From contig CAXXLZ010000001.1 in assembly GCA_963675595.2 (NCBI GenBank), positions 1,376,001 through 1,440,000 of the forward strand: a stretch of DNA of 64,000 bases, written 5' to 3'. Source of the stretch: Thermodesulfobacteriota bacterium (GTDB lineage Bacteria; Desulfobacterota; Desulfarculia; JACQYL01). This document shows positions 26,412-63,029 of the stretch, piece by piece; position 1 is the stretch's first letter; each line of letters opens with the position of its first letter. The position numbers and the translations under genes were made by a program. The notes beneath the pieces were generated by a model that searched no databases, had not been told where the DNA came from, and saw only the letters and a program-made list of their open reading frames with translations.

Positions 26412-26488
26412 GCGCCCGTAGCTCAGTTGGATAGAGCGTCGGACTTCGAATCCGCAGGTCGCACGTTCGAGTCGTGCCGGGCGCGCCA
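26412..26488 (+). tRNA. tRNA-Arg, anticodon TCG
   Basis: Acceptor GCGCCCG/CGGGCGC, D arm AGCTCAGTTGGATAGAGC, anticodon loop CT-TCG-AA, T arm GCACGTTCGAGTCGTGC, encoded CCA. Confidence 0.95.
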
Positions 26489-26501: not shown

Positions 26502-27614
26502 TTAATGAAGGGTTAGATCGCTGCGATCTGATCCTTTGCTTTTTGTGGCGCTGACTGTGTGAGAGTCCGTGTGAGACTTTTCTCTCGCTCTTTCAAAAAC
26601 CACCATGGCCAAACGTTCGGCTTCTCCCAAGGTGTGCAGATATATCTCCGTGGTGCTTCTGTTCTCATGGCCCAGGATCTTCTGAATCGCTGTAATGGGC
26701 ACGTTGTTGTTTTCCAACAAGGATGCTCCTGCGTGCCGGATCGCATGAAAACGGAAATACTTCACTCCCGCTTTTCTGCAGAGCGTCCGCATAATTCGTT
26801 TTCTTTCTATGAAGGGGCCTTCCTTCCACTCTCCGGTCTTGCTGGAACAGTACCTGTGCCAGAATATCCAGGGCTTCGTCGGATCCCGTTCGTCAAATCT
26901 TCTCTTCAAGGTTTCTCGAAGTAGGGACGTCATAGAGACATGTCTAGGAGTGAGATGCCCGCCTTTCTTCTTCCTTGTGTAAAGAACGATTTGATTGCTT
27001 CTGAAATCAACGTCATCCCAGGTCAGCCGATTGATTTCACTGGTTCTGCCAAGGGTTTCCTGGAGCACGGTCAAATAATCCTTCGTATCCCGGTCTGCGA
27101 TTGAGATCACTTTCCAAATGTCCTCAAGAGGTGGGACATACTTGATTCTTTTCTCCACAGGAAAGAAATCGATCCCGTCCAAGGGATTCGAGTTCACGAG
27201 CCCCATCTTCAGACCGTAATTGAAAGTGGCCCGAAGATACCGTATCTCCTTGTTTGCCGTGTAACTAGAGACTTTTCTTCGTTTTCTCACAAATTCAAGG
27301 ATCATAGGACGATTGACGATTCTGCACGGAAGGTTTTGCCACTCTTTGACCCATCGCCTGGCCATGTACCAGTATTCTTTATAGTGACGTTCGGATCGTC
27401 CGAGTCTGATGTGATCCAAATGCTCGTTAAGCAGGTCAAAGAAGGTTATGTCTGTCGTTTGAGCGGTCTCTTCGGGATTGAGTATCTCCTCCCTTCTTCT
27501 TGCCTCCGCCTGGGCTGCTTCTCTTTTCGTTTTGAACCAGGCTTCCGTATGCCGTTGTCGGTTCAGAGTGAAGTCGTACCTCCACCCTTTCCCCTTTTTG
27601 AAATAAACGCTCAT
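26502..27614 (-). CDS. Tyrosine integrase
   Basis: TLGRTSEI (R), [10 protein letters not shown] (HxxR), [13 protein letters not shown] (H, Y); N-terminal arm-binding-like segment. Confidence 0.95.
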
Positions 27615-28070: not shown

Positions 28071-28098
28071 ATGGGATCACCTCTCTTGAAAGGGTTTC

Positions 28099-28496: not shown

Positions 28497-28512
28497 CCGA
28501 AAACTATTTATA
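28497..28512 (+). promoter_or_regulatory. Archaeal-type BRE-TATA motif
   Basis: CCGAAAACTATTTATA; ATG 24 nt after TTTATA, no SD; identical 16-mer at 45506-45521 (minus). Confidence 0.65.
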
Positions 28513-28535
28513 CCCGCGCTTCCCGATCATCCAAT

Positions 28536-31980: not shown

Positions 31981-32281
31981 AACTCCGACCCGAACCTCCG
32001 CGGTCATCCGCTGTGTGGCCCGCCTTTTTGTCTGCGGCGATGCCCTCTACTCGCGGAGGGCCAGAGAAAACCTCCAGCGGCTGGGGGAGACGCTTCATCA
32101 CGTTGAATTCGAGGTGGAGGTCATCGATGTTAACGAGACCCCCCAGCTGGCCCTGGACCAGGGGATTTTCGTCAATCCCGCCCTTCAGGTGCTCGAACCT
32201 GCGCCGGGAACGCTGATTTACGGAGACTTGAGCGATTTTCAGGCATTGGCCGCTATATTCCCGAAAGGTGATGACCAATGA
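31970..32281 (+). CDS. kaiB: KaiB-family protein
   Basis: RLFVCGD..SRRARENL..EVIDVNETPQLA..I.V.PAL..P..IYGDLSD; overlaps kaiC stop, SD GAGGGGG. Confidence 0.85.
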   Translation: MSNKTPTRTSAVIRCVARLFVCGDALYSRRARENLQRLGETLHHVEFEVEVIDVNETPQLALDQGIFVNPALQVLEPAPGTLIYGDLSDFQALAAIFPKGDDQ

Positions 32282-35200: not shown

Positions 35201-37980
35201 GGATTCTGGTTTTTGGCAGCAATATTGACGACCGGAAACAGATCGAGCGGGAACTTCGCAGAAGTGAGGAACATTTTCGATTTATCGTGGATCATTCGTA
35301 TGACCTGATATGGACACTGATGGTAGATGGCGTGTTCTCCTATGTTTCCCCTTCATGGAAAACAAGACTCGGCTATCAACCGTCGGATGTCATGGGCGAG
35401 GCGTTTCAACAGTTTGTCCATCCCGATGATATTGCCGGGTGCGAAGAGTATATGTGGAAGGTTCTTGATGCACATAGCGCCTTAACCGGATATCAGTACC
35501 GAGCCAGGCATGCCGACGGGTCGTGGAGATGGCATGAAGCTGTTATGACGCCCACTTATGCCGAAGACGATTCGTTCCTCTCTTTCGTCGGCGTCTCAAG
35601 AGATATTACCGACCGTAAGCGACTGGAAGAGGTCTTGCGCGAGAGCGAGCAGCGGCTTCAAGCCGTGTTCAACGCCGTGGACAGCGTCCCGATTCAGGGA
35701 TACGACAAGGATCGGCGGGTTGTCTTCTGGAATCCCGCCAGCGAGAAGCTTTATGGCTATATCCATGACGAAGCCGTTGGCCGGCCTTTGGAGGAACTAA
35801 TCATTCCCGAGGAGTCTCGGGAATCGGTAGTGGAAGCGATCCGGCAGTGGCACGATCACGACATTCCCATCCCCGCGGGCGAGATCGAGCTTCTTAACAA
35901 GAATTGCGAGCGGCTTCAGGTCCACTCCAACCACATCATGATCACCAACCATCGCGGCGACAAGGAAATGTTCTGCATCGACGTGGACCTGACCGACATC
36001 CGACGGATCGAACAGAGCATGGCCTCCTTGTCGGCGGTTGTCGAGAACAGTGACAATATCGTGGTCGTCAAGGATTTGGATCTTCGCGTCGTCGCGACGA
36101 ACCCGGCCTTCGCGAAAGCCGCCGGCCACCCCACGGTCGATACGATGATCGGAAAGACGGACGCCGAAATTTTCGGCGTCACGCCCGACACCGAGCCGAT
36201 TCGCTCCTACATGGAAGATGAACGTCGCGCTCAGACCCTGCCGCCGGGCGAGTACATCCTGCGCGAGGAACCGGTTGTGACCCCTGACGGCGGGGTGCGT
36301 ACGGTTCTGACCAAAAAGTATCCGATCTATGACCGATCGGGGAACTTGATTGGAACAGGCAACATCTCCACCGACATCACCGAGCGCAAGCAGGCTGAAG
36401 AACGGCAGAAAAATCTAGCGACCGAACTCGAAGAGATCCTTGATTCTTTGCCTGATGCAGTGGTGTATGCCGATACGGATCGCCGAATCAAGAAGGTGAA
36501 TCCTTCGTTTACGCGCATTTTCGGATATAACCGTGATGAGATTCTTGGAAAGAAGACTCGAATTATTTACCGCAATGATGAGGAATACCTTGAGCAAGGT
36601 CGTAAGCGGTACAATCCGAAAGCCCCGCAAATGTGGGAACCATATGAATTCTATCATGTTCGAAAGGACGGGACCGAATTTATCAGTGAAACTGTCGGAA
36701 CACCGGTCCACAACTCACAAGGGGAAGTTGTCGGCCTGCTCGGACTCGTACGGGACATCACGGAGAAAAAACAAAGTGAATCAGAGAATGAAAAGCTGCA
36801 GGCCCAACTCCGTCAGGCTCAGAAAATGGAGTCGGTGGGTCGACTGGCCGGCGGCGTTGCCCACGATTTCAACAACATGCTGGGCGTAATCCTGGGCTCC
36901 GCGGAAATGGCGTTGGATGATACGAGTCCTTATGATCCGCAGTATGCAAGCCTGAAGGAAATCTACAAGGCGGCTCGGCGTTCTTCGGATCTTACCAGGC
37001 AACTCCTTGCCTTCGCTCGAAAGCAGACGATTTCTCCAGAAATCCTGGACTTGAACAAGACCGTGGAAGCTATGCTCAAAATGCTCAGGCGACTCATCGG
37101 CGAAGACATCGACCTCTCCTGGATGCCGGGAAGCCCCTTATGGAAGGTCAAAATGGATCCTTCCCAAATTGATCAAATACTGGCCAATCTATGCGTCAAT
37201 GCAAAAGATGCCATTGCGGGGACGGGCCGGGTCACCATCGAGACCGTGAATGTTACCTTGGACGAGGCACAATGTGCGGAGCAAGTCGGCTTCTTGCCCG
37301 GCGAATATGTCCTCTTGGCTTTGAGCGATAACGGTTGCGGAATGGATTCCGAGACGATGTCACACTTGTTCGAGCCTTTTTTCACCACCAAAGCGGTCGG
37401 CCATGGCACTGGGCTTGGCTTAGCCACGATCTACGGCATCGTCAAACAGAATGGGGGGTTCATCTACGTCGAAAGCGAGCCGGGCAGAGGAACAACATTT
37501 TCCATTTATTTTCCGAGACACGTGTATAAGGTGGAAGCCTTCTCCCGTGCCGAAACCAAGACTTCGGCGGAACTCGGCAGCGAAACCATTCTATTGGTGG
37601 AGGATGAAGAAGCCATGTTGAACATGGCGAAGACCATGCTGGAACGGCTGGGATACCGCGTCTTGGCCTGCGGAACGCCCGTCGAAGCGGAGCGATTGAC
37701 GCTGGAACACGGCGGCGAAATCCATCTGCTCATGACCGATGTGATCATGCCGGAAATGAACGGCAGGGAACTGGCCGAAAGGCTCATATCTCGATATCCG
37801 AACATGAGAAGCCTTTTTACATCCGGTTACACGGCGGATGTCATCGGTCGCCATGGAGTGCTTAACGAGGGCGTGCACTTCATACAGAAGCCGTTCTCCA
37901 AGAAGGACTTGGCGGCCAAGGTTCGGGAAGCCCTTTCGACAATACCTCGTCTTGGTCCAAGAGACTACCAAGGGGGCTGA
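32278..37980 (+). CDS. Giant hybrid sensor kinase (GAF, about 10 PAS/PAC, HisKA, HATPase, REC), 1900 aa
   Basis: Repeated DIT(D/E)RK PAC ends; AHDFNN H-box; FEPFFTTK..GTGLGL; C-terminal VEDE..TDVIMP..QKPF. Confidence 0.93.
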   Translation: MSASKSPPYDELKRRMEAAESALKAIREGRVDTILGERETLVVRLAEAEAREAHLKQVLLAIRNVNQLIVAEDDPQRLIEQACVNLTETMGYHNAWIALLGGKAGLGLGLGTEGPVATAAAAGFDVGFETLRERLERGEFPECMKRAMENEDTLVKDDPMVDCPDCPLHAQYGGRAGLVRRLDAGGVTYGILTASVPAAYARNAEEQELFNEVAGDLAFALYKIAAARKLEENRQHLSFVIEGSGVGTWEWNVRTNETLFNEQWATMLGYTIEELTPYDYGTWERLVHPEDLERARQALADCVEGRTTDYNCEFRMKHKDGRWVWILDRGRIMTRDDAGKALSMFGTHTDITDLKQTEEALKRQHTMLARTEAIAHVGSWEWDIAEDRVRWSDELFRIFGRNPDTEAPSFAQHLEIYLPEDMERLKEAVEHCVSQGTSYELELRAIRSDGEIRHCFARGQAETDETGRVVRLAGSLQDLTEQKKQHERISLLVRMLDEAPASITIHDVEGGFLYANRETFSLHGYDEDEFMSINLHELDVPESEALLEERFRLIFEKGEASFEVNHYRKDGTAFPLQVLAKQVQWEDRPAVLSIATDISDRKRMERRHQVLADIIKRSRDFIGVADFRKEAFFVNPAGREMVGLDGDEEVAGTKIEDYFLKEDIAFVNNVIIPTVVQEGRWAGEFRFRHFKTGKSVPVLYDLFRSEDPSTGEMINYATVTRDITERKRTEDALKFANTKLSIAMQAAGQGLWEWSLSTDTVHFDDAALEMLGYRREDIQGPMETGKWWISQAHPDDKAYMEERFDRYLSGKEKEYHVEFRLKDKDGGYLWVESSARVISKDPAGNPEVVVGIHQDISKRKRIEQNLIQSEKNYRDIFDNSSDCIFIHDATTGAIVDVNRTTCETFGYSVEEIKHLEVGDFSLNRPPYTSAEAVEWIKKAHKEGPQRFEWLAKDRMGRLIWFENNLLNAQIGGKDRILVFGSNIDDRKQIERELRRSEEHFRFIVDHSYDLIWTLMVDGVFSYVSPSWKTRLGYQPSDVMGEAFQQFVHPDDIAGCEEYMWKVLDAHSALTGYQYRARHADGSWRWHEAVMTPTYAEDDSFLSFVGVSRDITDRKRLEEVLRESEQRLQAVFNAVDSVPIQGYDKDRRVVFWNPASEKLYGYIHDEAVGRPLEELIIPEESRESVVEAIRQWHDHDIPIPAGEIELLNKNCERLQVHSNHIMITNHRGDKEMFCIDVDLTDIRRIEQSMASLSAVVENSDNIVVVKDLDLRVVATNPAFAKAAGHPTVDTMIGKTDAEIFGVTPDTEPIRSYMEDERRAQTLPPGEYILREEPVVTPDGGVRTVLTKKYPIYDRSGNLIGTGNISTDITERKQAEERQKNLATELEEILDSLPDAVVYADTDRRIKKVNPSFTRIFGYNRDEILGKKTRIIYRNDEEYLEQGRKRYNPKAPQMWEPYEFYHVRKDGTEFISETVGTPVHNSQGEVVGLLGLVRDITEKKQSESENEKLQAQLRQAQKMESVGRLAGGVAHDFNNMLGVILGSAEMALDDTSPYDPQYASLKEIYKAARRSSDLTRQLLAFARKQTISPEILDLNKTVEAMLKMLRRLIGEDIDLSWMPGSPLWKVKMDPSQIDQILANLCVNAKDAIAGTGRVTIETVNVTLDEAQCAEQVGFLPGEYVLLALSDNGCGMDSETMSHLFEPFFTTKAVGHGTGLGLATIYGIVKQNGGFIYVESEPGRGTTFSIYFPRHVYKVEAFSRAETKTSAELGSETILLVEDEEAMLNMAKTMLERLGYRVLACGTPVEAERLTLEHGGEIHLLMTDVIMPEMNGRELAERLISRYPNMRSLFTSGYTADVIGRHGVLNEGVHFIQKPFSKKDLAAKVREALSTIPRLGPRDYQGG

Positions 37981-38081
37981 GCTGAGTCGGAAGTTATTGG
38001 ATATCAGGCTCAAGCTCAAATATCCGGATCACTTTGCACAACAAGATACACCCGCATTTTCCGGAATTCATGGTGATCGAT

Positions 38082-41000
38082 ATGTCCGACCGGAACGTTC
38101 AAACCGTATTCGTGGTCAACGACGATCATGTTCAGCTTTCCATATTGGAAGCGCTGATACGAAAGGCGGGTCATGAGCCGCGTGTTTTCAGCTCTGCGGA
38201 ACAGGCTTTGAATGCCGTGGATCCGCTGCAGCCTCCTTCACTCGTTGTGACCGATTTACATATGCCGGGTATCGACGGTTGGCAACTTTGCAGACTGATG
38301 CGTTCACCCGAATATGCTTTTTTGATGAACGTTCCCATCATCGTAGTATCGGCGACCTTTTATGGTGACGAACCCGAACGGATTGCCGCGGACCTCGGAG
38401 TCGCCGCTTTTTTCACGTCTCCGGTGGATGGCGATGATTTCGTTCGGCAGGTGAGGGCCGTTCTGGAGGTAAGGCACAGCCTTATTCCTTCACGCGTCCT
38501 GATCGTCGAAGATGCACGGACCTTGTCCGGAATGATTGAGAAAGCCTTCACCGAAGAAGAGTATCAAGTCCACAAGGCATTTACGATAGAAGCCGCCAAG
38601 GAAGCCTTATCCACGGCCTTGTACGATTTGGCCGTGATCGACCATGATCTGGCCGACGGCAAGGGCGATAACCTGCTGGAACTGCTGAAAGCACAACAAC
38701 CTGATTGCGTCTGTTTGATGATGACAGGCGACTCGAATCCGCAAAGGGCGATTGATTGGATGAAACGAGGCGCCGCGGCTTACCTTCGCAAGCCTTTCGA
38801 TCCCGATCATCTTATCGAATTATGCCGGCGGGCACGACGTGAACGCACACTGCTCCGGACCCAGAACTTGCTTGAAATTCGGACGCACGAACTGAAGGAA
38901 AGCAGGCACCAATTTCAACAAATCTTTGAAGGCAGTCGGGACGGATTTGTCATCGTTGATGAACAACAGCGAATCACAAACGCGAACCGCGCCTTTTGCC
39001 GAATGTTGGGCTACTCCCTTGAGGAGTTACGGGCCATGGCCGGTTTTCAAAAGATCACCCCGTCACGCTGGCACCAATGGGAAGATGAGGAAATCTGGAA
39101 TAAACGCTTGCTGCAAGAGGGTTATTCGGGAGTTTACGAAAAGGAGTACATACGCAAAGATGGTTCAATATTTCCCGTGGAGCTCCAAGCCTACACGGTT
39201 TTGGATGAAAACGGCAAGATATCCTATCTATGGGGGGTCGCACGAGACATCTCTGAGCACAAACAGGCGGATGCATCCCTGCGTCGAAGTCAATCCCGCT
39301 ACCAATCCCTGACCGAGAATTTTCCCAACGGCGCGATTTTTCTATTTGACGAAGACTTTCGCTACCTCTTGGTAGGAGGCGAAAGCCTGCGCAAAGCCGG
39401 GCTTTCGAGTGAGGAGCTTGTGGGCAGAACGGTAAAGGAAGTTTTTCCCGACTTATGGAGCACAATACGTCCCCACGCTCAGGCGGCCTTGCGCGGAGAA
39501 AAGAGTTATTACGAAGTCGAGTATAAAGGTCGTATCTATTCGAATCAGGCGTTGCCCATCAAGGATCCTTCCACTAGCTTTCGCCAAGCCCTCGTTCTCA
39601 CGCAGGATATCACAGAACGCAAACGGATTGAGGAGGCGTTGTCCAAAAGCGAGGAAAAGTACCGCGTCCTGGTAGAGAACGCAGGAGAGGCCATCTTCGT
39701 CGCTCAAAACGGGAGGCTGAAGTTTCACAACAGCAGGACCGAGACGATGATCGGTTTCAGCAAGGACGAACTGACATCCAAACCTTTCATTGACTTCATA
39801 CATCCCGAAGACCGTTCACTCGTGCTGAATCGACACATGAAAAGACTGCAGGGAGAGATCGATGAGCCCTCCAAGTACAGCTTCAGGATCGTGCACCGTT
39901 CAGGGAAGACACTCTGGGTTGAGCTAAAGGTGGTCCTCATCGAATGGTTCGGAGAACGGGCCACGCTGAATTTCTTGTCCGATATCACCGATCGGAAACG
40001 GGCTGAAGGAGCGCTGCTCGCCAGTGAAATCCGTTTCCGTGATCTGGCAAGACAAGCACCTTTCAGCATTCAGGTACTCGATCTTAGCGGCAAGACACTG
40101 CAGGTCAACGATGAGTGGAACCGACTGTGGGGAATAAGTCTTGCCGATATCGCACATTACAACATCTTTGAAGACCGGCAGCTCCTGGAAAACGGGGTTA
40201 TAGAGCACGTCAAAAGGGCGTTTTGTGGCGAGAACGTGATCATTCCGCCGATGGAATATTCAGCTGAGAAAACCGTTGGAAAGGGACAAAGTAGGTGGGT
40301 TCAGGCACGTGCCTTTCCGGTTCGGGACGAGTTGGGCAATATCCGAGAGGTCACCCTGATACATGAAGATATTGGCGAGCGCAAGCGTGCCGAGGAGGCA
40401 CTCAAACAAAGCGAAGCAAAATATCGCGCCCTTGTTGAAAACAGCACCGACATCATATGGACTTACGATCTCGCTTCAAAGAAATATACTTTTGCAGCCG
40501 GCGCCCTCGAATCCACATTAGGATATTCGCCTAACGAGGCCTCCGGCATGAGCCTCGACGATCTGTTCGACTCAGACACCAAGAAGAGGATTTCCGCCGA
40601 ATTCCAGAAAATTTTGGAAAGTAACGGACAAGACAAAAAGATCAAGATCGAAGCAACACATCGCCACAAGAACGGCGGTTACGTCCCACTCGAGATATTC
40701 GCTTCTTTGGTGCGTGACGACAAAGAAAGACCTGTCGCTTTCAGTGGAGTTTCCCGCGACATCACGGAGCGTCTCCAAAACGAAAAGGCGCTGCGCGAAA
40801 GCGAAGAGCGATTCCGAATGCTCCTGAACGACGTATCCATGGTATCCGTCCAAGGCTACGCACCGGACGGAACGACGCTATATTGGAATGAGGGTTCACG
40901 GATTCTATACGGATATACTTCGGACGAAGCGCTCGGTTCCAACCTGTTGGACCTGATCATCCCTCCTGAAATGCGAGATGAAGTAGCCACAGCGATTCGT

Positions 41001-42338
41001 CAAATGGCCGAAACAGGACGACCTATTCCCCCTTCCGAATTGGAACTAATGCGAAAAGACGGCACCCGTGTTCAGGTTTTTTCTTCTCATTGCATACTTA
41101 AGCGATCCGGGCGGCCCCAAGAGCTCTATTGCGTCGACGTAAACCTAAGCGCCATCAAACAGGCCGAGGTGGAACGGGAAAGAATGCGGGAGCAGCTGCT
41201 TCAGGCTCAGAAAATGGAGTCGGTGGGTCGACTGGCCGGGGGCGTAGCCCACGATTTCAACAACATGCTGGGCGTTATTCTTGGCCACGTGGAATTGGCC
41301 CTGCAACAATCGGTGCCGGATGACCCGCTCTTCACCCCTCTGCAGGAAATCCAAAAAGCCGCGCGGCGATCCGCAGACCTGACTGGACAACTCCTAGCCT
41401 TCGCCCGGAAGCAGCCGGTAAGACCCAAGAACCTTGACCTGAACATTACAGTGTCAGGCATGCTTACGATGCTCCACAGGCTGATCGGAGAGAATATTCA
41501 GCTTGTATGGAGGCCCGAAGGTGATCTATGGCAAGTCAGGATGGATCCAGCGCAATTGGACCAGATTCTAGTGAATCTATGTGTCAATGCCCGCGATGCC
41601 ATTGGAGAATGTGGCAAAATAGCCATACAAACACGGAACGTCTCTTTGAACAAAGTAGAGAGTGGCATGCCTCCGGAATTTGTTCCCGGCTGCTATGTGC
41701 TCCTCACCGTATCCGATGACGGATGCGGTATGGACAAAAACACATTGGACAAGCTCTTCGAGCCTTTCTTTACCACCAAGGGAGTCGGCAAAGGAACCGG
41801 TTTGGGCTTGGCTACAGTGTACGGTATTGTCCGCCAGAATAACGGGTTTGTGAACGTCGACAGCAAACTTGGGCAGGGAACGACTTTCAGCGTTTATTTA
41901 CCTCGGCATGACAAGGCACCGGATTCCAAACCACTTGAAGCTACCGCCAGCCCATCGGTAGTCGTCCTAGAAACGATTCTGGTGGTAGAGGATGAGCCGA
42001 TGATCCTCAATATTACCAAAACAATGCTTGAGCGGTTGGGATATAAGGTTTTGGCCGCTGGTAATCCCCGCGAAGCAATTCGCATAGCCGATGAGCATGA
42101 CGAAGAAATTCATCTGCTCATGACCGACGTCATCATGCCGGAAATGAACGGCAAGGAACTGGCGGAACGTGTGAGGTCTCGGTATCCCAAAATCGGAATA
42201 CTGTTCACTTCCGGATACACGGCCGATGTCATCGCAGATCACGGGGTTTTAAGCGAAGGTATCCACTTCATTCAGAAGCCTTTTTCACAGAACGATTTGG
42301 CAACCAAAGCAAAAAAAGCCCTGGATGGCAGACGGTGA
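38082..42338 (+). CDS. Hybrid sensor kinase (2 REC, about 6 PAS, HisKA, HATPase, REC)
   Basis: Two N-terminal receivers, PAS repeats, AHDFNN, GTGLGL, C-terminal receiver; start could be 38034 or 38070. Confidence 0.92.
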   Translation: MSDRNVQTVFVVNDDHVQLSILEALIRKAGHEPRVFSSAEQALNAVDPLQPPSLVVTDLHMPGIDGWQLCRLMRSPEYAFLMNVPIIVVSATFYGDEPERIAADLGVAAFFTSPVDGDDFVRQVRAVLEVRHSLIPSRVLIVEDARTLSGMIEKAFTEEEYQVHKAFTIEAAKEALSTALYDLAVIDHDLADGKGDNLLELLKAQQPDCVCLMMTGDSNPQRAIDWMKRGAAAYLRKPFDPDHLIELCRRARRERTLLRTQNLLEIRTHELKESRHQFQQIFEGSRDGFVIVDEQQRITNANRAFCRMLGYSLEELRAMAGFQKITPSRWHQWEDEEIWNKRLLQEGYSGVYEKEYIRKDGSIFPVELQAYTVLDENGKISYLWGVARDISEHKQADASLRRSQSRYQSLTENFPNGAIFLFDEDFRYLLVGGESLRKAGLSSEELVGRTVKEVFPDLWSTIRPHAQAALRGEKSYYEVEYKGRIYSNQALPIKDPSTSFRQALVLTQDITERKRIEEALSKSEEKYRVLVENAGEAIFVAQNGRLKFHNSRTETMIGFSKDELTSKPFIDFIHPEDRSLVLNRHMKRLQGEIDEPSKYSFRIVHRSGKTLWVELKVVLIEWFGERATLNFLSDITDRKRAEGALLASEIRFRDLARQAPFSIQVLDLSGKTLQVNDEWNRLWGISLADIAHYNIFEDRQLLENGVIEHVKRAFCGENVIIPPMEYSAEKTVGKGQSRWVQARAFPVRDELGNIREVTLIHEDIGERKRAEEALKQSEAKYRALVENSTDIIWTYDLASKKYTFAAGALESTLGYSPNEASGMSLDDLFDSDTKKRISAEFQKILESNGQDKKIKIEATHRHKNGGYVPLEIFASLVRDDKERPVAFSGVSRDITERLQNEKALRESEERFRMLLNDVSMVSVQGYAPDGTTLYWNEGSRILYGYTSDEALGSNLLDLIIPPEMRDEVATAIRQMAETGRPIPPSELELMRKDGTRVQVFSSHCILKRSGRPQELYCVDVNLSAIKQAEVERERMREQLLQAQKMESVGRLAGGVAHDFNNMLGVILGHVELALQQSVPDDPLFTPLQEIQKAARRSADLTGQLLAFARKQPVRPKNLDLNITVSGMLTMLHRLIGENIQLVWRPEGDLWQVRMDPAQLDQILVNLCVNARDAIGECGKIAIQTRNVSLNKVESGMPPEFVPGCYVLLTVSDDGCGMDKNTLDKLFEPFFTTKGVGKGTGLGLATVYGIVRQNNGFVNVDSKLGQGTTFSVYLPRHDKAPDSKPLEATASPSVVVLETILVVEDEPMILNITKTMLERLGYKVLAAGNPREAIRIADEHDEEIHLLMTDVIMPEMNGKELAERVRSRYPKIGILFTSGYTADVIADHGVLSEGIHFIQKPFSQNDLATKAKKALDGRR

Positions 42339-44050: not shown

Positions 44051-44194
44051 ATGCCAAGACCCTATAAGTGCCCATATTGCGGCGCAACCCAAAGCCACTG
44101 GAAAGGATACAGGCCCCTTGTCCAGGGAAAAGTCCGGCTCCGGATGTGCACCAAGTGCCACCGGAAGTTCACGACTCGAGTTAAGATCGAATAA
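44051..44194 (+). CDS. Small zinc-ribbon protein (47 aa)
   Basis: MPRPYKCPYCG..CTKCHRKFTT; strong SD. Confidence 0.7.
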   Translation: MPRPYKCPYCGATQSHWKGYRPLVQGKVRLRMCTKCHRKFTTRVKIE

Positions 44195-44209: not shown

Positions 44210-45484
44210 TCAATGAAAACCGCCGAACGGCCCGGCACCAAATCCTTCTCTCGATAAGAACCGGTTGAGGGTTTCCTTGGGGAGCGACCTCGATATTTCT
44301 CTTGTCTGGCCGTACCTGCCGCGTGATATCAGCCGAGCGTTGATCAGCCCATAAAGGTCAAGGGAACCAATGATGTCCGAGAACCTCCGTTGCGTGAGCG
44401 GCCTGACCCGTTCCAACTCGCAGAAATTAGCGTATCGATCATAGGCTTCGCCCGTAGTGACCCGTTTCGAAGTCTTGGCCAGAAGATCGTAGCAGGAAAG
44501 AAGCGCAAGTTTTTGCTGAGGAGCGAGCGCCCGAACCATCTCTTCGGTCTTGTCCATCTCCAATCTGTGCTCAGCCATATCCACGATTTCTTCGGACAGC
44601 CTGCCGCCGGTTTCCTGCGCCACCTTGGCCGACTTTGATAGAAGCTCCACCGCCTTTCTCGCATCACCGGTGTCCCGCGACGCCAATGCCGCGATCTTTC
44701 GAACAGCAGCCACGTCCACCTTTGACTTGTCCAATGCCTTTTCCACTCGAAGATTCAGAATTTCTATCAAATCCAAGGCGTTATAGGGTTCAAAGAGCAT
44801 GTCCGTCTTCTTGAGAACACTCAGAATCCGCGGGTCCAGCATCTTGTCCCAGTTCAGTTTGTTCGTGACCATGATAAGAACCAACCGGCAGGGAATCTTT
44901 CTCGGAAGGGTCTTTCCGAGGAAGGTAATAAACTCGTCCGCATTGGGCTTGATGTTATCCGCCTCATCAATCAGGAGGCACAAGAAACCCTGGAACCGGT
45001 TCAGCTCTTCGATGATTCGTTCCTGCATCTGATCAATGGGAATGCCTTTCCTGTAGGTGCGAATCGAGTCATTGAGTGCTCTTGCAAGTTCATTCAACGC
45101 TCCGAAAGAGGACCTGGGCGAGGTCAAGTCCACGTATCTGTACTGAAACCCGATCGACTGAGTCCGGCAATATTCCTGGAAAGTTGAAAGCACGTGAATG
45201 AGGGAAACCGTTTTCCCTGAACCCGTAGGCCCGAAGACCAGCAAAGAACTCGGATGATCGCCGTCCAGGATGGGAGTCAGATGACAGACGATGCGTTTCA
45301 GCTGCTCTTCCCGGATATTCCGATCAAAAATCTCCTTCAGAACCGAAGTCCGCTCTTCTTCAGGCAACTTCTCGTCGTCCAGATAGTTGGGGTTCAAAAT
45401 AAGGCGATGATTCTTCTGTGAGTCATGCAATGTGCGGATGAATTGCAAGGAAGCTTCGGAATGATCTCCACCGGACATTTTCAA
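44210..45484 (-). CDS. cdc6: Orc1/Cdc6-family replication initiator (archaeal type)
   Basis: L.P.Y..REEQ; GPTGSGKT; LIDEAD; LDPRILS; FEPYNA.DL.EIL..R; TGDARKAVELL; wHTH TTGEAY..Y..PLTQRRFSDIIGSLDLYGLI..SRGRYGQTREI. Confidence 0.9.
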   Translation of the reverse strand: MKMSGGDHSEASLQFIRTLHDSQKNHRLILNPNYLDDEKLPEEERTSVLKEIFDRNIREEQLKRIVCHLTPILDGDHPSSLLVFGPTGSGKTVSLIHVLSTFQEYCRTQSIGFQYRYVDLTSPRSSFGALNELARALNDSIRTYRKGIPIDQMQERIIEELNRFQGFLCLLIDEADNIKPNADEFITFLGKTLPRKIPCRLVLIMVTNKLNWDKMLDPRILSVLKKTDMLFEPYNALDLIEILNLRVEKALDKSKVDVAAVRKIAALASRDTGDARKAVELLSKSAKVAQETGGRLSEEIVDMAEHRLEMDKTEEMVRALAPQQKLALLSCYDLLAKTSKRVTTGEAYDRYANFCELERVRPLTQRRFSDIIGSLDLYGLINARLISRGRYGQTREISRSLPKETLNRFLSREGFGAGPFGGFH

Positions 45485-45505
45485 GCGATTCTTCTACAGG
45501 ACATC

Positions 45506-45521
45506 TATAAATAGTTTTCGG
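45506..45521 (-). promoter_or_regulatory. Archaeal-type BRE-TATA motif upstream of cdc6
   Basis: Minus CCGAAAACTATTTATA, 22 nt before TTG 45484 and 28 nt before ATG 45478. Confidence 0.65.
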
Positions 45522-45568
45522 TAATAAGCCCTGTCGTTACTTGAAAGCGAACCGGATTTTAAGTGTGG

Positions 45569-45949
45569 GAAAGTTTCCGGTGGAACTTTCAGTTTCAGTT
45601 TTTAGTGATGTTTTCTTTTCCTTATTATTATTTATTTCTATATAGAAACTATATAATATAATATAATATAATATAATATAAAAGCCGCCAAAATATAGAA
45701 ACATTTTTAAAATAGATCACTTCAAAGTGGCAACAAAGAAACAAACATAACACACCCAACAAAACGGTTTCAAGTTTTCCACGCGACATTTACACACACT
45801 CTAAAAGCTGATTTTGGATCACTATTGAGTGACAACGTGGAGGCCATGACGTCCCTAAAAGACCTCGATCAACGACGGTATTTCAAGAAAACCCGAAACA
45901 ATCGGCCATTCGACAGTACAAGAGTAACGTTTCCACCGGAAGTTTACTC
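45569..45949. other. Putative replication origin: AT-rich DUE between inverted ORB-like boxes
   Basis: TTCCGGTGGAA (45575-45585) and its exact reverse complement TTCCACCGGAA (45931-45941) flank an AT-rich tract, adjacent to cdc6. Confidence 0.65.
45651..45680 (+). repeat. (ATATA)6 tandem repeat
   Basis: Read directly. Confidence 0.95.
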
Positions 45950-46011
45950 GGGTTCCCGAAGCCGGTTGACGTCAATCCATCCATTCCTCCGAGAAAATTC
46001 CCGAAACCAAC

Positions 46012-46515
46012 CTACATCTCATCCCAGTCGATATACTGAGGCGGACTTTCCCCCACCCTTTCGACGATCTTGGGATATTTTTCTCCCGGAGCCTCTTCTC
46101 CGATCTCGATCACCCGGATTTCGTGCCACCAATCGTCTCCGAAATCGAACCAATAGAAGAAGTGATCGCCCTCTTTCAGGTTCAGAGAGCCGATCTTGGT
46201 TCTTGAAACGTCTCCTGCAGGCGGAGGAGTTCCCAACGGATATTCCTTCATTTCGAAAGGAAGCACATACCTCTCCGCCTCGGGATCCTGCGGTATTTTG
46301 GAGAGCTGAAACTCGTAGAGGTGCTCGTCTTCACGATCAAAGGCTCTGAAGATCGCCCGGTGAAGCTGCCCCAGGGTATGCTTGCCTCGAACTTGAATGA
46401 CACGGAATACCGCCGGGTTCTTTGCGATGAAGGTCTTGCTCATGGGTCCGTTTGCAATGGAGACCTTTAAAGCGTACAGATTTTCCGCCCGCTTTCCTCC
46501 GGAACTCGTCGCCAT
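46012..46515 (-). CDS. pRiA4b ORF-3 / TnpR-like protein
   Basis: R.IQV..TL.QLH.AI..AF..EHLYEF..F.Y.FDFGDDWWHEI..YP.I....G..PPQY. Confidence 0.85.
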   Translation of the reverse strand: MATSSGGKRAENLYALKVSIANGPMSKTFIAKNPAVFRVIQVRGKHTLGQLHRAIFRAFDREDEHLYEFQLSKIPQDPEAERYVLPFEMKEYPLGTPPPAGDVSRTKIGSLNLKEGDHFFYWFDFGDDWWHEIRVIEIGEEAPGEKYPKIVERVGESPPQYIDWDEM

Positions 46516-52630: not shown

Positions 52631-53002
52631 CTACATCCGGACGTGGAGCCGGATTGCATTTTCGGTTTTCTTTTCGATCACCGTGTAGCCTTTACGCCGA
52701 GCTTCGGTCCGGGTCTTCTCCACCGCATAGGCCTGCTTCAAGAGTCCTCCGTTTACGCCGATGGCTCTTTCCACGTTGGGGTCGTAGAAGTCGCACTGAA
52801 GCTGGTACCTGCCGTGCATCCTCTGAACGCCGATTTCATAATCCGCGCCGGGCAATCGAATGGCATGCTCGCACGCTGCATTGTTTCCGTACCACCGGAA
52901 CTCTTTCCTGCCTTCGAGAAACACCAGGCCCAGCCGATTACACGCAGACTTCAGGACAGCGAGGTCCTTTACTTCGAGTTCGATTTTGACGATATGACTC
53001 AT
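52631..53002 (-). CDS. DUF1257 (Ycf35)-like protein
   Basis: MSH...I..EV.DL..L..AC..LG..YEIG..Y.L..D..L.Q.YA..A...GY. Confidence 0.8.
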   Translation of the reverse strand: MSHIVKIELEVKDLAVLKSACNRLGLVFLEGRKEFRWYGNNAACEHAIRLPGADYEIGVQRMHGRYQLQCDFYDPNVERAIGVNGGLLKQAYAVEKTRTEARRKGYTVIEKKTENAIRLHVRM

Positions 53003-53481
53003 CGTATCCTCCGAATCGTTCTGACGGGTTCTTCGTCGCTTCTGCTCGCTCTCTTCGCCCGAGTCTCAGCCCAATCCCGGAGCGCTGAGAGCTGCTCCTT
53101 CATGGTTTTCGAAAGCGGAACAATGGCTTCACGAGCGTTTCCTAGGCCATCGAACAGCGAATCCTTGGCCAGCTGCTCGATCTCAGCGCCTGTCCATTCA
53201 GTGAGTTCAGCAGCATACTCGGAGGGTATTTCCGAACCGTATCGTTGATTCATGATCTCGATAATGGCTTCGCGCTCGTTTTTGTTCGGGATATCCACGA
53301 AAAAAAGGGCATCAAACCTCCCCGATCGCAGAAACTCAGGCGGAAGCCCCGAGATATCGTTGGCGGTTGCCATGACCAGAATCGGACTGGTAGTCTCTTG
53401 GAGCCAGAGGAGCAGATGCCCGAACATGGACGAGGTGGTACCGCCGTCCGTCATCCCCGAACTTTTCACCCCGGACAGCAC
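52999..53481 (-). CDS. Ycf46-like AAA+ ATPase, 3' exon
   Basis: DGGTT..FGHLLLWLQE..ATANDISGLPPEFLRSGRFDALFFVDIP..WTGAEIEQ; in frame with the 5' exon after intron removal. Confidence 0.9.
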   Translation of the reverse strand: MLSGVKSSGMTDGGTTSSMFGHLLLWLQETTSPILVMATANDISGLPPEFLRSGRFDALFFVDIPNKNEREAIIEIMNQRYGSEIPSEYAAELTEWTGAEIEQLAKDSLFDGLGNAREAIVPLSKTMKEQLSALRDWAETRAKRASRSDEEPVRTIRRIR

Positions 53482-56966: not shown

Positions 56967-57086
56967 ATCGTTCTCCTTCCGTTCGGAAACAGAAAAGGCC
57001 GCTTCCAGCTCACGGCCGGAAACAGCCCACAAAAAAAGCGGCCGAAGCCGCCGCCATCCATGCTCTTTGATTCTTTTCTTCTTTGT

Positions 57087-60285: not shown

Positions 60286-62262
60286 TTAACGTTCCGCTTT
60301 TTCGGTGAGTAGGATGGGAATGATCTTTTCGATAAAATCTTTGGCGAGGTAGGCTTGAACGCCTTGAATGGTGAGGAGTGATTGGATTTTGGTGAGGGCT
60401 TCGGGGTTTGTCGCGATCATGAACTTCTGAATGGAGGCGTGGTTCGAGAGGGTCTCGACGTTCTTCCTGATGTCCGATTTTCCGGTCTCGACCTGAACCG
60501 CCAAACCACCGTTCCAGTCCGCCACGAGATCGAGATTGTCTTTTTCCAGGAACACTCGGCAGTGCCCGGCAAGCGCCAGTCGGATTCTTTCGACCCAGTA
60601 GTTGTGCTCTACTCCGCCCCGAACTCGAGAATTCTCGAGTTTCAGGCCTTCTCGGTGGAGCTGCTCTCCGGCCTGCGGCGTCAATTCAAAGAGCCGGTTT
60701 CGATCCACAAGAACTTCCTTGAGCAGGCCTTTCTCCATGAGACCGTCCAGGCAGAGGGTTCCCTCCCGCGGGTTCATTCCGAGCTTCTTGTAACGTTTTT
60801 GAACTCCGTCGAAAGGATGACGCGCGATGTCATCCAGCAGAATCCGCTCCATGGGGGAGAGTGTTTCCGGATTTGAAATCTCATGAAAGGAGTTTATTTC
60901 CGGCTTTAGAGCTTGGTTTGGATATTCATTTCCTGAAGAAGAGTTTATTCTAGTTTGTATGACTTTATCCCGGATCATTCCCTTCTCGATTTTGAATTCC
61001 GGCACCGTTATCAGGAACGGAAACGGGACCCTTCCGGTCTTCACAATGGCCTCTCCCACCTTGAGCATGCCGTAGTAAGTCTCATTCCCAATGGGAATGA
61101 GCTGGGAACGGCTCAAACTCGAGAAATCTTGAGACAGAGAGGTTTGAAAGCCGATCCGGGTGTAGACATTCCCAAGAGCTGAGACTGAGACTTTGTGGGG
61201 ATGCTGATCGAGAATCACGATGCCTTCCCCGAGTTCCCTGATCTCCCTCATCATGACGTCCGTGATATCCTCTTCCTTGCTCGTTCGAAGGAGCAGGTGA
61301 TGGGCTTCCTCAATGACGATCATGTGCTTTAGAATCTCTCTTTCCGGTTCCTGCATCCGGTAGAAATAGATCCAAAGAAGCAGGCTTCCGATGATGAAAG
61401 TCTTGTCCGAATCCGAAAGTCCGTCCAGTTCCAGGATCACGTTTTTCCAGAGCAGTTCCGGGATTGAAATGGGACTGAGACTGGGACTGGGACTGACGCT
61501 GGGAGATTGAAAATTCACAACCTCGTTCAGGCCCGGGAAGGTGAGGCTGTTCAGGGTTCGCTTGGCGGAACTCAGCCAAAGCATTTCTCTGCCTCGGCGG
61601 TTTTGCTTGTCGATATAGCGCTTCATTTCCGCGAAGTCGGGCAGGCTCATGGCGTCCATCAAAACGTCCGACGCACCGGGCCCTAACAGATAAGCCTTCT
61701 CGATGATCTCCATCAGCTTCTTCGACCAGATGTGAGACTCCACTCCGGGCGGAGGAATCTTTGGATTGAAACGGAAAGGGCTGACCTCCCTTCCCACGGT
61801 ATAGATCAGGATGTCCTCGTTCCGGAAATCCGGATGTGTCAAAAGGTCCCGGTAGTTTCGTTTCCAGTCGAAGATCAGAAACGGAATCTTCGCCTTGACG
61901 AACTCTCCCAGAAGATTCATGCAAGCGGTAGTTTTTCCGGAACCGGTCTGCCCGAAAAGTCCCACATGGCGAATCAACTCGTCCTTTCTGAGACCGAAAG
62001 GATAGAGCTTCTTGCCGCAATAGGAGACGTGTCCGAGCTGCAATTGCCCGGCCGCTTCATCTTTCCCAGGCGGCGGCAGCATAACGGCGTTCTCGAACGC
62101 CACTCCCGTATGCTGCAGGAGCATGGAATCGACCATGGATTCGATCTCGCGCTTGGCTCTCGGATTCTCCTCTATCTGATAAAGCGACCACAGAGCCCGA
62201 AGTTCTCCTGAAGAGACGAAGGGCTCGAGCCGTCTCAGTTTTTCGGCAACAGTTACGATCAT
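60286..62262 (-). CDS. HerA/FtsK-superfamily (DUF87/VirB4-like) ATPase with C-terminal wHTH and nuclease-like domain
   Basis: RHVGLFGQTGSGKT, IFDWK..Y, FNP, IVIEEAH, REIRELG..ILDQHP; C-term GGVEH..DLV..AVQVETG. Confidence 0.85.
   Translation of the reverse strand: MIVTVAEKLRRLEPFVSSGELRALWSLYQIEENPRAKREIESMVDSMLLQHTGVAFENAVMLPPPGKDEAAGQLQLGHVSYCGKKLYPFGLRKDELIRHVGLFGQTGSGKTTACMNLLGEFVKAKIPFLIFDWKRNYRDLLTHPDFRNEDILIYTVGREVSPFRFNPKIPPPGVESHIWSKKLMEIIEKAYLLGPGASDVLMDAMSLPDFAEMKRYIDKQNRRGREMLWLSSAKRTLNSLTFPGLNEVVNFQSPSVSPSPSLSPISIPELLWKNVILELDGLSDSDKTFIIGSLLLWIYFYRMQEPEREILKHMIVIEEAHHLLLRTSKEEDITDVMMREIRELGEGIVILDQHPHKVSVSALGNVYTRIGFQTSLSQDFSSLSRSQLIPIGNETYYGMLKVGEAIVKTGRVPFPFLITVPEFKIEKGMIRDKVIQTRINSSSGNEYPNQALKPEINSFHEISNPETLSPMERILLDDIARHPFDGVQKRYKKLGMNPREGTLCLDGLMEKGLLKEVLVDRNRLFELTPQAGEQLHREGLKLENSRVRGGVEHNYWVERIRLALAGHCRVFLEKDNLDLVADWNGGLAVQVETGKSDIRKNVETLSNHASIQKFMIATNPEALTKIQSLLTIQGVQAYLAKDFIEKIIPILLTEKAER
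61471..61506 (-). repeat. Degenerate 6-bp tandem repeat encoding a Ser-Pro linker
   Basis: GGGACT GAGACT GGGACT GGGACT GACGCT GGGAGA = SPSVSPSPSLSP. Confidence 0.7.
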
Positions 62263-63029
62263 TGAAATTCCCTCTCACACCATCCACCGCATAGACAGGG
62301 GTAGTCCTCTTCACGCTCCGACTCGGTCAGCTCGTGCATTCGGCGGATTTCTTCCGCAGCCCAATCCACGAGTTCTTGGGTAGGCTTGAAAACCTTGGGA
62401 TTGTCTTTGGAGGATGGGAATTTCAGGAAATGGACTGAGACTCGATCGGGAAGTTTTCCGTGCACTTCCTGCTCGAGGAGGGCGTAGATCGCAAGCTGGA
62501 GTTTGATGCCGGGGGTAATGTCCTGGTATTTCGAAGTCTTATAATCCCTGATCTCGATGAATTCTCGAGAATAGCGGGCATCCACGATACCTTGGGCACC
62601 ATGAAGTTGACTCAATAGCCGTTTTTCCGGCTCAGGCGGGCTTCTTCCTCTGCTTACTTCTCGGATAAACTGGTGAAGCCAGTTCAAAGCCATCTTCCTG
62701 GCCTCGACGAGTTGCCCTTCGGCCTCGTCCCGACCGCCGGAGAGCTTCCGAATCTCGAGAATTCTCGAGTTCCACAGGAAATCCACCCTGTCCAGTATTC
62801 GACTTCGCGCATCTGCGTAGGGCGCGTCGAGAAACTCGGGAGTATATGCCCGAACAAAGGCTTCCGCAGCCTGGTGAACCACCTGCCCCACGATGAAGCA
62901 CATCTTGGGTTTGGTCTTCAGTTTCCTGACGTATCTAAGATAGAACTTTCTCGGGCATCCCCATCGGAACTGCGCATCCTTCTTATAGGAAAGAATCGCC
63001 GACGGGCTCAGGATTCGCTTGAAGGTCAT
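62259..63029 (-). CDS. PD-(D/E)XK RecB/Cas4-like nuclease
   Basis: LSPS.I..CPRKFY..G..VH..E..GIVD..DYKTS..QLAIY..C-terminal Cys cluster. Confidence 0.88.
   Translation of the reverse strand: MTFKRILSPSAILSYKKDAQFRWGCPRKFYLRYVRKLKTKPKMCFIVGQVVHQAAEAFVRAYTPEFLDAPYADARSRILDRVDFLWNSRILEIRKLSGGRDEAEGQLVEARKMALNWLHQFIREVSRGRSPPEPEKRLLSQLHGAQGIVDARYSREFIEIRDYKTSKYQDITPGIKLQLAIYALLEQEVHGKLPDRVSVHFLKFPSSKDNPKVFKPTQELVDWAAEEIRRMHELTESEREEDYPCLCGGWCEREFQ

Follow-up and report, generated by a model that had tools for sequence, protein, structure and literature searches.

An Orc1/Cdc6-family gene and its box-bearing, AT-rich spacer on tRNA-integrated islands of a Thermodesulfobacteriota bacterium: a candidate replication module

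The Orc1/Cdc6-family gene

In this study we analysed a stretch of 64,000 nucleotides from the genome of a Thermodesulfobacteriota bacterium (hereafter the window; positions 1376001-1440000 of contig C1), which carries a gene of the Orc1/Cdc6 family directly beside an intergenic spacer with four related sequence boxes and an AT-rich tract. The genome comprises 6.79 Mb in three contigs and is estimated to be 98% complete. Gene and spacer are part of an island integrated at a tRNA gene, and they may represent the replication module of this island. Coordinates refer to the window unless a contig is named.

The open reading frame (ORF) at 44210..45484 on the minus strand can be translated without an internal stop. 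Since ATGTCCGGTGGA is kept in all four copies of the gene in this genome, the first in-frame ATG, at 45478, is the likely start rather than the TTG at 45484. The gene, hereafter orc1, accordingly spans 44210..45478(-) and encodes 422 aa. An earlier note, made from the letters of the window, had described a full-length Orc1/Cdc6 protein with a GDARKA sensor-2 motif and a C-terminal winged helix-turn-helix, and searches with family models bear this out. The product reaches 253.8 bits against TIGR02928 (orc1/cdc6 family, cut-off 181.3) and matches the AAA+ base (AAA_22, 49.1 bits, residues 77-207), the Cdc6_lid (43.8 bits, cut-off 27, residues 241-304) and the Cdc6_C winged helix (86.1 bits, cut-off 25.1, residues 316-405). 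STAND-type models are matched below their cut-offs (nSTAND_NTPase5 with 21.1 bits, NACHT with 17.3 bits).

The best relative of solved structure is Sulfolobus Orc1-1 (2qby_A, E 2.8e-51, aligned from residue 58), followed by Aeropyrum ORC1 (2v1u_A, E 5.4e-51). Both are DNA-bound initiators, and the two alignments cover residues 58-410/416 of the product. Weaker matches are Orc1-3 (2.5e-31) and the Pyrobaculum Cdc6 chain 1fnn (5.7e-20). The Walker A (GPTGSGKT, residues 85-92), Walker B (DEAD, 173-176), sensor-2 (GDARKA, 273-278) and wing (RGRYGQTREI, 388-397) motifs align with the same motifs in 2qby_A and 2v1u_A and are invariant across 19 members of a bacterial clade. The N-terminal 57 residues lie outside the alignments with the archaeal chains, which start at residues 57-58, and are conserved inside this clade, with 16 invariant positions up to residue 57 (including 31-57). 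On the grounds of sequence comparison, the product of ORF 44210-45478(-) is confirmed as a true Orc1/Cdc6-family protein. The closest equivalog model, NF001625 ('ORC1-type DNA replication protein'), is matched with 244.7 bits at a cut-off of 501, and the protein belongs to a separate clade, so that orthology to a specific archaeal chromosomal initiator is not indicated.

A search of 1.84 billion representatives returned 3117 proteins at E <=0.001, 193 of them at E <=1e-30. A FastTree tree was calculated from 127 rows, comprising 19 clade members and 108 of the best 150 representatives (those of 360-470 aa; the 42 others were dropped). The bacterial clade and eight unnamed representatives form one group with an SH-like support of 99, apart from the other 100 rows. 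These outside rows include an Acidilobus Orc1 cluster and otherwise bear no taxon labels, so that no donor lineage can be named. Family models, solved structures and the tree agree in grouping the protein with Orc1/Cdc6 initiators and not with other AAA+ families; a grouping with non-initiator AAA+ families had been named in the earlier note as evidence that would count against its interpretation.

Boxes and AT-rich tract upstream of orc1

The spacer upstream of orc1 measures 533 nt (45479-46011) and separates two co-directional genes. At its far side lies a gene of the PRiA4_ORF3 family (46012..46515(-), Pfam PF07929, 2e-22), and since this gene has the same direction as orc1, the spacer is no divergent promoter region. 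The sequence TTCCGGTGGAA is found exactly at 45575-45585(+) and its reverse complement at 45931-45941. With up to one mismatch, TTCCGGTGGAA has 10 matches in the window against 2.14 expected, a number reached by none of 100 shuffles. The earlier note had claimed two boxes, exactly inverted, at 45575 and 45931, each within a longer imperfect palindrome; exact matching retrieves both boxes, and the palindrome around the first extends over 22 nt (45569-45590) with 9 pairs. The total has to be corrected, as repeat finding and a position weight matrix (PWM) reveal four related boxes, one of which overlaps the start codon of orc1.

The multi-locus consensus core of these boxes is TTCCAYNGGAMAT. Box 1 (CTCCACCGGACAT, 45466..45478(+), PWM 23.8 bits) is the one at the start codon and is identical in all four genomic copies. 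Box 2 (TTCCACCGGAAAC on the minus strand, 45573..45585(-), PWM 27.2 bits) forms the centre of the palindrome and is inverted with respect to boxes 1, 3 and 4. Box 3 (TTCCACGCGACAT, 45777..45789(+), PWM 20.2 bits) and box 4 (TTCCACCGGAAGT, 45931..45943(+), PWM 22.4 bits) are conserved in the copies of islands A, B and C (see below). Boxes 1 and 2 enclose about 90 nt before the gene, whereas the mutually inverted boxes 2 and 3 enclose an AT-rich tract (45586..45776), a candidate unwinding element. Within it, 45617-45716 is the AT-richest stretch of 100 nt in the whole window (86% AT; runner-up 74%), and an (ATATA)6.2 repeat is located at 45651-45681, the length of which differs among the genomic copies. 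The AT-richest tract with its (ATATA)6 thus lies directly upstream of orc1, as had been noticed before.

None of the boxes is flanked by a G run, which leaves neither a G-string nor an extended origin recognition box (ORB) and is in line with the earlier observation that the classical G-string is not evident. By their sequence, the boxes can be termed mini-ORB-like, of the mini-ORB type only. A scan with Rfam found no family in the spacer (45479-46011), and scans for sigma-70 promoters and terminators gave consensus-level matches only. GC skew was considered as a sign of an origin and rejected as uninformative, because it tracks the strand of the genes and changes direction near 42 kb rather than in the spacer.

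Read on the gene strand, the box at the start codon is ATG TCC GnT GGA and encodes the first residues MS(D/G)G. As these are kept across loci of 53-64% protein identity, either the residues are fixed by the DNA site or the site is fixed by the protein.

Conservation and specificity of the boxes

For the comparison with other loci, the box matrix was derived from 19 distinct boxes, all of them taken from other genomes. A test set of 19 metagenomic loci (53-64% protein identity) was kept out of this matrix, and matches of at least 15 bits were counted. The upstream regions of these loci contain 51 matches in 10,865 nt, compared with 2 in 128,315 nt elsewhere. All but one of the 19 loci have at least one upstream box. 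An inverted box at -91..-128 in the orientation of box 2 is present in 16/19, and a box at -20..+8 in 13/19. In the interval from the distal to the inverted box, 11/19 reach 75% AT or more across 80 nt. The full order of distal box, AT peak, inverted box at -91..-128 and ATG box is kept in 10 of the 19 loci. The layout of box, AT tract and box is also found in strain NaphS2, Desulfosarcina variabilis, Desulfatiglandales and Hydrogenedentota, with 3-5 boxes per locus. Homologous loci that lack the AT tract and the boxes had been named in the earlier note as evidence that would count against its interpretation; both are kept in other bacteria. The idea of locus-specific box centres was dropped, since boxes of the CACAGG type and the CATCGG type are mixed within single loci.

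The same matrix was run over both strands of the 6.79-Mb genome and gave 23 matches of at least 20 bits. Twelve of these are found at most 450 nt before one of the four orc1 start codons. Five further matches lie inside the four islands, namely four equivalent intragenic sites and the distal box of island D beyond an insertion sequence (IS). The remaining six fall into open reading frames of ordinary AT content. About 13 matches at this level are expected by chance in 13.6 Mb (two strands; our estimate from 2^-20 per position), and the six isolated boxes in coding DNA therefore fit chance. Strong box sites in this genome are almost only found upstream of the four orc1 genes.

The four intragenic sites consist of a single box (22-23 bits) inside a gene for a PD-(D/E)XK nuclease, which is present in each of the four islands (window 62766-62786, C2:921815, C2:4293414 and C2:1635279). 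This recalls the second ORB cluster inside Pyrococcus dp1, but here it is one box in coding DNA.

Distribution of the gene family

A word-indexed search for relatives of the orc1 product returned 465 proteins at E <0.001. Among the best 120, all but one show 61-93% identity over at least 90% of the query; the exception, a fragment of 286 aa, covers 63% of the query with 98% identity. Thermodesulfobacteriota and strain NaphS2 account for the named relatives among these 120. Genome records with a relative comprise the complete genome of Desulfosarcina variabilis str. Montpellier, Desulfatiglandales, Desulfarculaceae, Desulfopila and two Hydrogenedentota. In a sample of 401 genomes of the phylum, the gene is present in three, with 4, 4 and 2 copies, which is a sporadic and multi-copy occurrence. 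The Cdc6_C model responds in 6 of these 401 genomes (strongly in 3) and in 3 of 14 control genomes, all three being archaea. Judged from such matches, the orc1 family is widespread in Desulfobacterota and Hydrogenedentota, and the islands that carry it appear to be a family of Desulfobacterota and some other bacteria.

Islands integrated at tRNA genes

Four copies of orc1 with 98-100% protein identity are found in this genome, inside contigs of 1.78 and 4.73 Mb. They lie in a repeated block which starts near window position 27600 and runs beyond the window end. Each copy is part of an island that has perfect direct repeats of a tRNA 3′ end as borders and an integrase beside the tRNA gene, as determined by BLAST. 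Island A, the locus described here, is integrated at tRNA-Arg(TCG) with an attachment (att) repeat of 48 bp and extends over 91.7 kb. The other three are island B at tRNA-Val (att repeat 45 bp, 130 kb), island C at tRNA-Phe (48 bp, 75.6 kb) and island D at tRNA-Arg(ACG) (49 bp, 93.4 kb).

In island A, the tRNA-Arg(TCG) gene at 26412..26488(+) was identified by ARAGORN and Rfam, and its 3′ 48 nt (26442-26489) represent attL. The identical 48-nt repeat, attR, was found by BLAST outside the window, at C1:1494191-1494238 (window-equivalent 118191-118238). The tyrosine integrase is encoded at 26502..27614(-) (Pfam Phage_integrase, 1.2e-25), and the integrases of islands B, C and D are 43-55% identical to it. 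Integrase, tRNA target and 48-bp att repeats agree with the integrative element that the earlier note had assumed. Against the model of archaeal XerA (NCBIfam), the integrase of island A scores 79 bits, far below the cut-off of 220.

Similar arrangements are found in relatives. In Desulfosarcina variabilis, orc1 is located between tRNA-Phe and a 43-bp repeat of tRNA-Phe, 115 kb apart, and in Desulfarculaceae an integrase of 54% identity is encoded 8 kb away from it, next to tRNA-Arg(CCG). Within 60 kb of orc1 in the Desulfatiglandales genome, no such arrangement of tRNA and integrase was found. In our genome, the att sequence of tRNA-Arg(ACG) exists in three copies (C2:1571114-1571159, 1618672-1618720 and 1712089-1712137), which implies a second att-bounded segment of about 47.5 kb following island D in a tandem array at a single tRNA gene, without orc1.

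Two of the islands are interrupted by a 1553-bp IS, of which at least 14 near-identical copies are present in the genome. In island D, it is inserted exactly at the start of the AT tract (C2:1653243-1654795), and in island C it splits the integrase gene (C2:4230477-4232030). These insertions can be regarded as natural knock-outs.

The four orc1 copies share 93.3-94.7% nucleotide identity, with a synonymous divergence (pS) of 0.19-0.25 and a ratio of nonsynonymous to synonymous divergence (pN/pS) of 0.009-0.048. All four genes are under strong purifying selection. The low pN/pS implies that each of them has remained functional after the divergence of the islands, also in islands C and D with their IS insertions.

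Neighbouring genes and further island content

Several small genes near orc1 travel with it. Three of them (P0124, P0123 and P0122) lie downstream of orc1, and two of these encode small, probably DNA-binding proteins of about 140 aa. P0122 (42356..42775(-), about 139 aa, probably a winged-helix protein by motif) has 61-64% identity to counterparts in the homologous loci L021, L022, L024 (D. variabilis), L027 and L054. It has no match in Pfam, NCBIfam or PHROG, and Atlas places it with unnamed clusters of Thermodesulfobacteriota and Planctomycetota. P0123 (42775..43200(-)), a conserved small protein assigned to no family, is 53-66% identical in L021, L022, L024 and L027. P0124 (43130..43978(-), 282 aa) contains two Cys-rich, zinc-ribbon-like motifs and is 37-43% identical in L021, L022 and L024, with Cys columns that are invariant when L054 is added; it has weak zinc-ribbon matches in Pfam only, and its Atlas clusters are unnamed ones of Thermodesulfobacteriota. 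Convergent with orc1 is a gene for a small zinc-ribbon protein (44052..44194(+), Pfam Zn_ribbon_NrdR, 1.2e-5, below cut-off), for which a 68% identical ORF exists in L022. Further away, P0125 (28536..29708(+), 390 aa) recurs near orc1 as BLASTP matches in L021, L022 and L045 and belongs to no family; in our reading of the sequence, its N-terminal part is hydrophobic and its C-terminal part charged and repeat-like. P0122, P0123, P0124 and P0125 may serve the module as adaptor, partition or control proteins.

Island A consists of a shared backbone (42.3-68.5 kb) and a cargo that is almost entirely devoted to signal transduction. The backbone encodes a HerA/FtsK-like ATPase (60286..62262(-)) and a PD-(D/E)XK, Cas4-like nuclease (62259..63029(-)), both identified with Pfam, NCBIfam and PADLOC. 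Both also occur in L054, the ATPase in L021 and L029 and the nuclease in L024. In other loci, the neighbours of orc1 include HerA/FtsK-like ATPase, PD-(D/E)XK nuclease, Replic_Relax, ParA, RadC and ImpB/Y-family polymerase. Compared with CedD of the Sulfolobales DNA-exchange system, the ATPase reaches 72 bits at a cut-off of 600. The best NCBIfam matches of ATPase and integrase are archaeal, a weak hint that the backbone may have a wider archaeal kinship.

Another gene, encoding a classical AAA ATPase (about 500-570 aa, phrog_8638) at 52999-57032(-), is split by a group II intron into exon 1 (about 56019-57032) and exon 2 (52999-53481). The intron comprises domain V/VI (Rfam, 53482-53571) and an ORF with reverse transcriptase/maturase/HNH (53571-55433), and a DUF1257 gene then lies at 52631-53002. 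In island C, BLAST finds the intron region twice in tandem (C2:4281042-4284656 and 4284653-4290283).

Located at 30517-42338 and at C1:1444570-1493982 (window-equivalent 68.5-118 kb), the signalling cargo encodes, besides a KaiC homologue and PAS/GAF histidine kinases with lengths of 1900, 1434, 1456, 1183 and 1155 aa, an HD-GYP-like response regulator, a sigma-54 activator, CheW and chemoreceptors. The KaiC-like gene at 30517-31980 was considered as a helicase and rejected, because its product passes the KaiC equivalog cut-off (473.9 against 408) and the gene heads the signalling cargo block.

A candidate replication module in a DnaA/DnaB host

Bacteria and archaea are the textbook case of non-homologous initiation of replication, with DnaA and DnaB on the one side and Orc1 and MCM on the other. 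The host studied here is of the bacterial type. Its genome contains two matches to DnaA domains, with 151.2 and 146.1 bits, at C2:1988135-1988617 and C2:3059530-3060012, which sit in open frames of 505 and 441 aa, and one dnaB gene (589.5 bits). The named relatives of its DnaA come from Deltaproteobacteria, Desulfatiglandales, Thermodesulfobacteriota and Desulfobacteraceae. With two DnaA, one DnaB and deltaproteobacterial DnaA relatives, the host is a bacterium, and the bacterial chromosome of the earlier note is confirmed.

Taken together, the data make us lean towards the reading that orc1 and its 533-nt spacer are the rep/ori module of tRNA-integrating, plasmid-like islands that use the bacterial replisome, although we hold this to be only somewhat probable. 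In such a module, the winged helix of Orc1, aided by the AAA+ domain, would bind the mini-ORB boxes, and ATP-bound Orc1 would distort and open the AT-rich tract between the two inverted boxes. In a host with DnaB but without MCM, the opened origin would have to be passed on to the bacterial DnaB replisome, with or without the mediation of a conserved small neighbour protein. Via the box at the start codon and the box about 100 nt upstream, Orc1 might repress its own synthesis, and the origin would remain silent as long as the island resides in the chromosome. Once the integrase has excised the island at the 48-bp att repeats, replication of the circle would start from the spacer origin.

Many features of this arrangement are known from archaea. 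Archaeal origins have a long intergenic AT-rich region upstream of cdc6/orc1, which bears a DNA unwinding element (DUE), and minimal autonomously replicating fragments measure 633-692 bp (PMC1868953). An origin beside the initiator gene is also described for archaea in PMC4010727. The origins ori-pHV1/4 and oriC1 of Haloferax volcanii resemble the present locus in that orc1/cdc6 lies beside 0.5-0.9 kb of intergenic DNA with an AT-rich unwinding element and repeats. In contrast to these haloarchaeal replicons, the present element is integrated at a tRNA gene of a bacterium that has DnaA and DnaB but lacks MCM. The Orc1 proteins of archaeal plasmids are distant, as the best 40 of 418 plasmid matches are archaeal and show 25-30% identity.

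As to the boxes, the 13-bp mini-ORB of Pyrococcus is TTCCAGTGGAACT, in which TTCC and GAA are perfectly conserved, and the Pyrococcus oriC has inverted ORBs and AT-rich regions (PMC1904270). The consensus core TTCCAYNGGAMAT resembles TTCCAGTGGAACT, and several copies including an inverted pair are a trait shared with the ORBs or mini-ORBs of Pyrococcus, Sulfolobus and Methanothermobacter. Different from the oriC of these archaea, the present loci have no G-string ORB and 3-5 boxes each, one of which is fused to the start codon. On the protein side, Walker A, Walker B, the sensor-2 GDARxA and the wing RGRYGxT are shared with Sulfolobus Orc1-1 and Aeropyrum ORC1, whereas the conserved N-terminus is specific to the bacterial clade, which stands separate and well supported.

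Archaeal elements with Orc1/Cdc6, such as the pleolipovirus SNJ2 and integrated elements of thaumarchaea, likewise use tyrosine integrases of the tRNA type (PMC5861418, PMC6563490). Their hosts, however, are archaea with MCM, and no virion genes are seen here. In a phage collection, SNJ2 is the sole match of the orc1 product, with 23% identity. Among bacteria, the replicating integrative elements of actinomycetes combine an integrase with their own replication gene and an FtsK-like translocase. Iteron plasmids (RepA, pPS10 type) have an initiator that acts on repeats beside an AT-rich tract, represses itself and recruits the DnaB of the host. Unlike the Reps of iteron plasmids, which are winged-helix-only proteins, the putative initiator of the islands is a full-length AAA+ Orc1/Cdc6. 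A kinship of the WH1 domain of such Reps with the Orc1/Cdc6 winged helix has been proposed, and in the accessible text of the same survey of bacterial plasmid initiators, Orc1/Cdc6 appears only as a distant relative of Rep (10.1101/2024.09.03.610885).

Points that weigh against a replication function

A number of results weigh against a replication module and have to be set beside the evidence given above. The first concerns the helicase. The earlier note had seen no MCM in the window, and this absence extends to the entire 6.79-Mb genome, where the best match to PF00493 has 35.6 bits over 121 of 224 positions and none is real. The match is unspecific, since the same model responds in all 14 control genomes including E. 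coli. We know of no precedent for a hand-over from Orc1 to DnaB. The rest of the island, in which the earlier note had suggested looking for MCM or primase, provided neither: in the 92-kb island no primase, helicase, second initiator or capsid/virion genes were recognised. The lack of another recognisable initiator, helicase or primase in itself speaks for orc1 as the replication gene, but more than 20 ORFs of the island are unannotated and could hide another one. By Pfam, type IV secretion genes and a relaxase, as expected of an integrative and conjugative element, were likewise absent from the ORFs scanned between window coordinates 26.5 and 119.3 kb, a region that takes in the island with its right border and in which many ORFs are unannotated; the HerA/FtsK-like ATPase is the only related component.

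The second group concerns the spacer. It contains no DnaA box (TTWTNCACA), the two matches of the window being located elsewhere. Box 1 overlaps the start codon and thereby points to autoregulation, and taken by itself it would argue for autoregulation only. The orc1 gene of island D is as constrained as the others despite the IS in its AT tract, so that selection on the gene is not obviously dependent on the spacer. Furthermore, four near-identical pairs of initiator and origin would not be tolerated for free plasmids of the same incompatibility, whereas they would be tolerated in the integrated state.

The third group concerns a free form of the element. All 418 matching records among the 72,556 plasmid records of PLSDB have less than 60% identity, so that no close relative is found on plasmids, and none was found in IMG/VR. 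None of 20 short contigs available in full length is circular by terminal overlap. In the public runs, all 11 of which are contig sets and none RNA, there is no direct sign of excision, replication or raised depth and no trustworthy attP/attB junction. Contigs of four runs were compared with 16501-36500; run X3 covers the flank up to about 26457 and has zero or near-zero depth from 26506, which is a gap in cover and not a bridged empty site and hence no evidence of excision. Contig ends at the tRNA gene may stem from other organisms.

Alternative explanations

The main rival to a replication module is that Orc1 is a self-regulating DNA-binding ATPase whose principal task lies outside replication, for example as a regulator or maintenance factor of the element comparable to Orc1-2 of Sulfolobales. 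Under this view, the boxes would serve as operators, and the AT tract would function as promoter or UP DNA. Orc1-2 is a documented regulator and non-initiator with the same domain layout (PMC9738581). The position of box 1 over the ATG and of box 2 about 100 nt upstream, bracketing the promoter zone, would fit such a regulator, and the purifying selection on orc1 of island D, with the IS in its AT tract, can be read in the same way and counts against an origin. Autoregulation and origin function coexist at archaeal origins, and autoregulation through the start-codon box does not exclude an origin in the islands. A regulator would also be expected to have further targets, whereas strong boxes are almost confined to the upstream regions of orc1 and one intragenic site per island. 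At 190-470 nt upstream, the AT tract and the distal box or boxes are farther away than simple repression needs, their layout is conserved, and no divergent gene is present at the spacer. Moreover, the initiators Orc1-1 and ORC1 match the protein far better than 1fnn does. We consider this alternative unlikely, and at the same time the one to be taken most seriously.

Clustered and oriented repeats beside a gene could also suggest a segregation or anchoring system, with Orc1 on the boxes as a centromere-like complex, perhaps together with the small neighbours. In D. variabilis, the spacer is indeed immediately preceded by a ParA gene (L024:6401-7186), and Atlas gives a weak lead from P0124 to ScpA/kleisin-like clusters (0.78, below the line of 0.9). 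In island A, however, neither ParA nor ParB was found, an AT-rich tract between inverted sites is a trait of origins and not of centromeres, and to our knowledge there is no precedent for Orc1/Cdc6 as a centromere-binding protein. Such a role seems very unlikely to us.

Still less probable is a function as anti-phage or conflict NTPase of the ORC/STAND type on a defence island. The weak, sub-cut-off matches to nSTAND_NTPase5 and NACHT could point to it, but the protein has no effector domain and corresponds to archaeal Orc1 exactly in length and domain order. The HerA-like ATPase, the Cas4-like nuclease and a methyltransferase of the island would fit a defence context, but PADLOC yields marginal P-loop matches only (mad8 with 20.2 bits, GajB with 17 bits), and cognate DNA boxes beside the gene are atypical of known defence NTPases.

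Finally, mis-binned or mis-assembled archaeal DNA might be suspected, as apart from these bacteria the family is archaeal and the only control genomes in which Cdc6_C responds (3 of 14) are those of archaea. In our view, such an artefact is refuted. Every one of the four copies is embedded in a contig of 1.78 or 4.73 Mb and has a bacterial tRNA gene on one side and its att repeat on the other. Islands C and D share IS copies with the rest of the genome, the neighbours are of bacterial type (LuxR-type response regulators, sigma-54 activators, methyl-accepting chemotaxis proteins, a group II intron), and close relatives are present in Desulfosarcina variabilis, the genome of which is complete, as well as in chromosome-level metagenome-assembled genomes.

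Implications

With a replication module as the reading we favour, the first interpretation of the locus as an archaeal-style replicon is partly supported by the sequence data. None of the contrary findings named in the earlier note that sequence analysis can reveal was encountered. A more far-reaching version can be offered as a tentative proposal, which we hold with less confidence than the module itself: the islands would be autonomous replicons, in which Orc1 opens a mini-ORB/DUE origin and hands it to DnaB without MCM. This would be a hybrid pathway which came from archaeal mobile elements and is now present in several phyla, with the clade-specific N-terminus or the small neighbours as adaptor. 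As part of the same proposal, the acquisition may have taken place in sediment bacteria living beside archaea.

Automatic annotation already names such genes, as 'replication initiation protein, orc1/cdc6 family' in NaphS2. In a literature search which had subscription journals and supplements outside its scope, no description of an Orc1/Cdc6-based replicon or origin in bacteria was found. The module is directly testable, because a relative is present in the cultured Desulfosarcina variabilis str. Montpellier, and a working module, if there is one, would be a new replicon for genetic tools in Desulfobacterota. If our reading is true, an Orc1-type initiator works together with a bacterial helicase; otherwise, Orc1 and mini-ORBs would have a second, non-replicative use. 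Either outcome bears on the coupling of initiator and helicase, on how mobile elements carry genes between the domains and on how wide the range of plasmid replication systems is.

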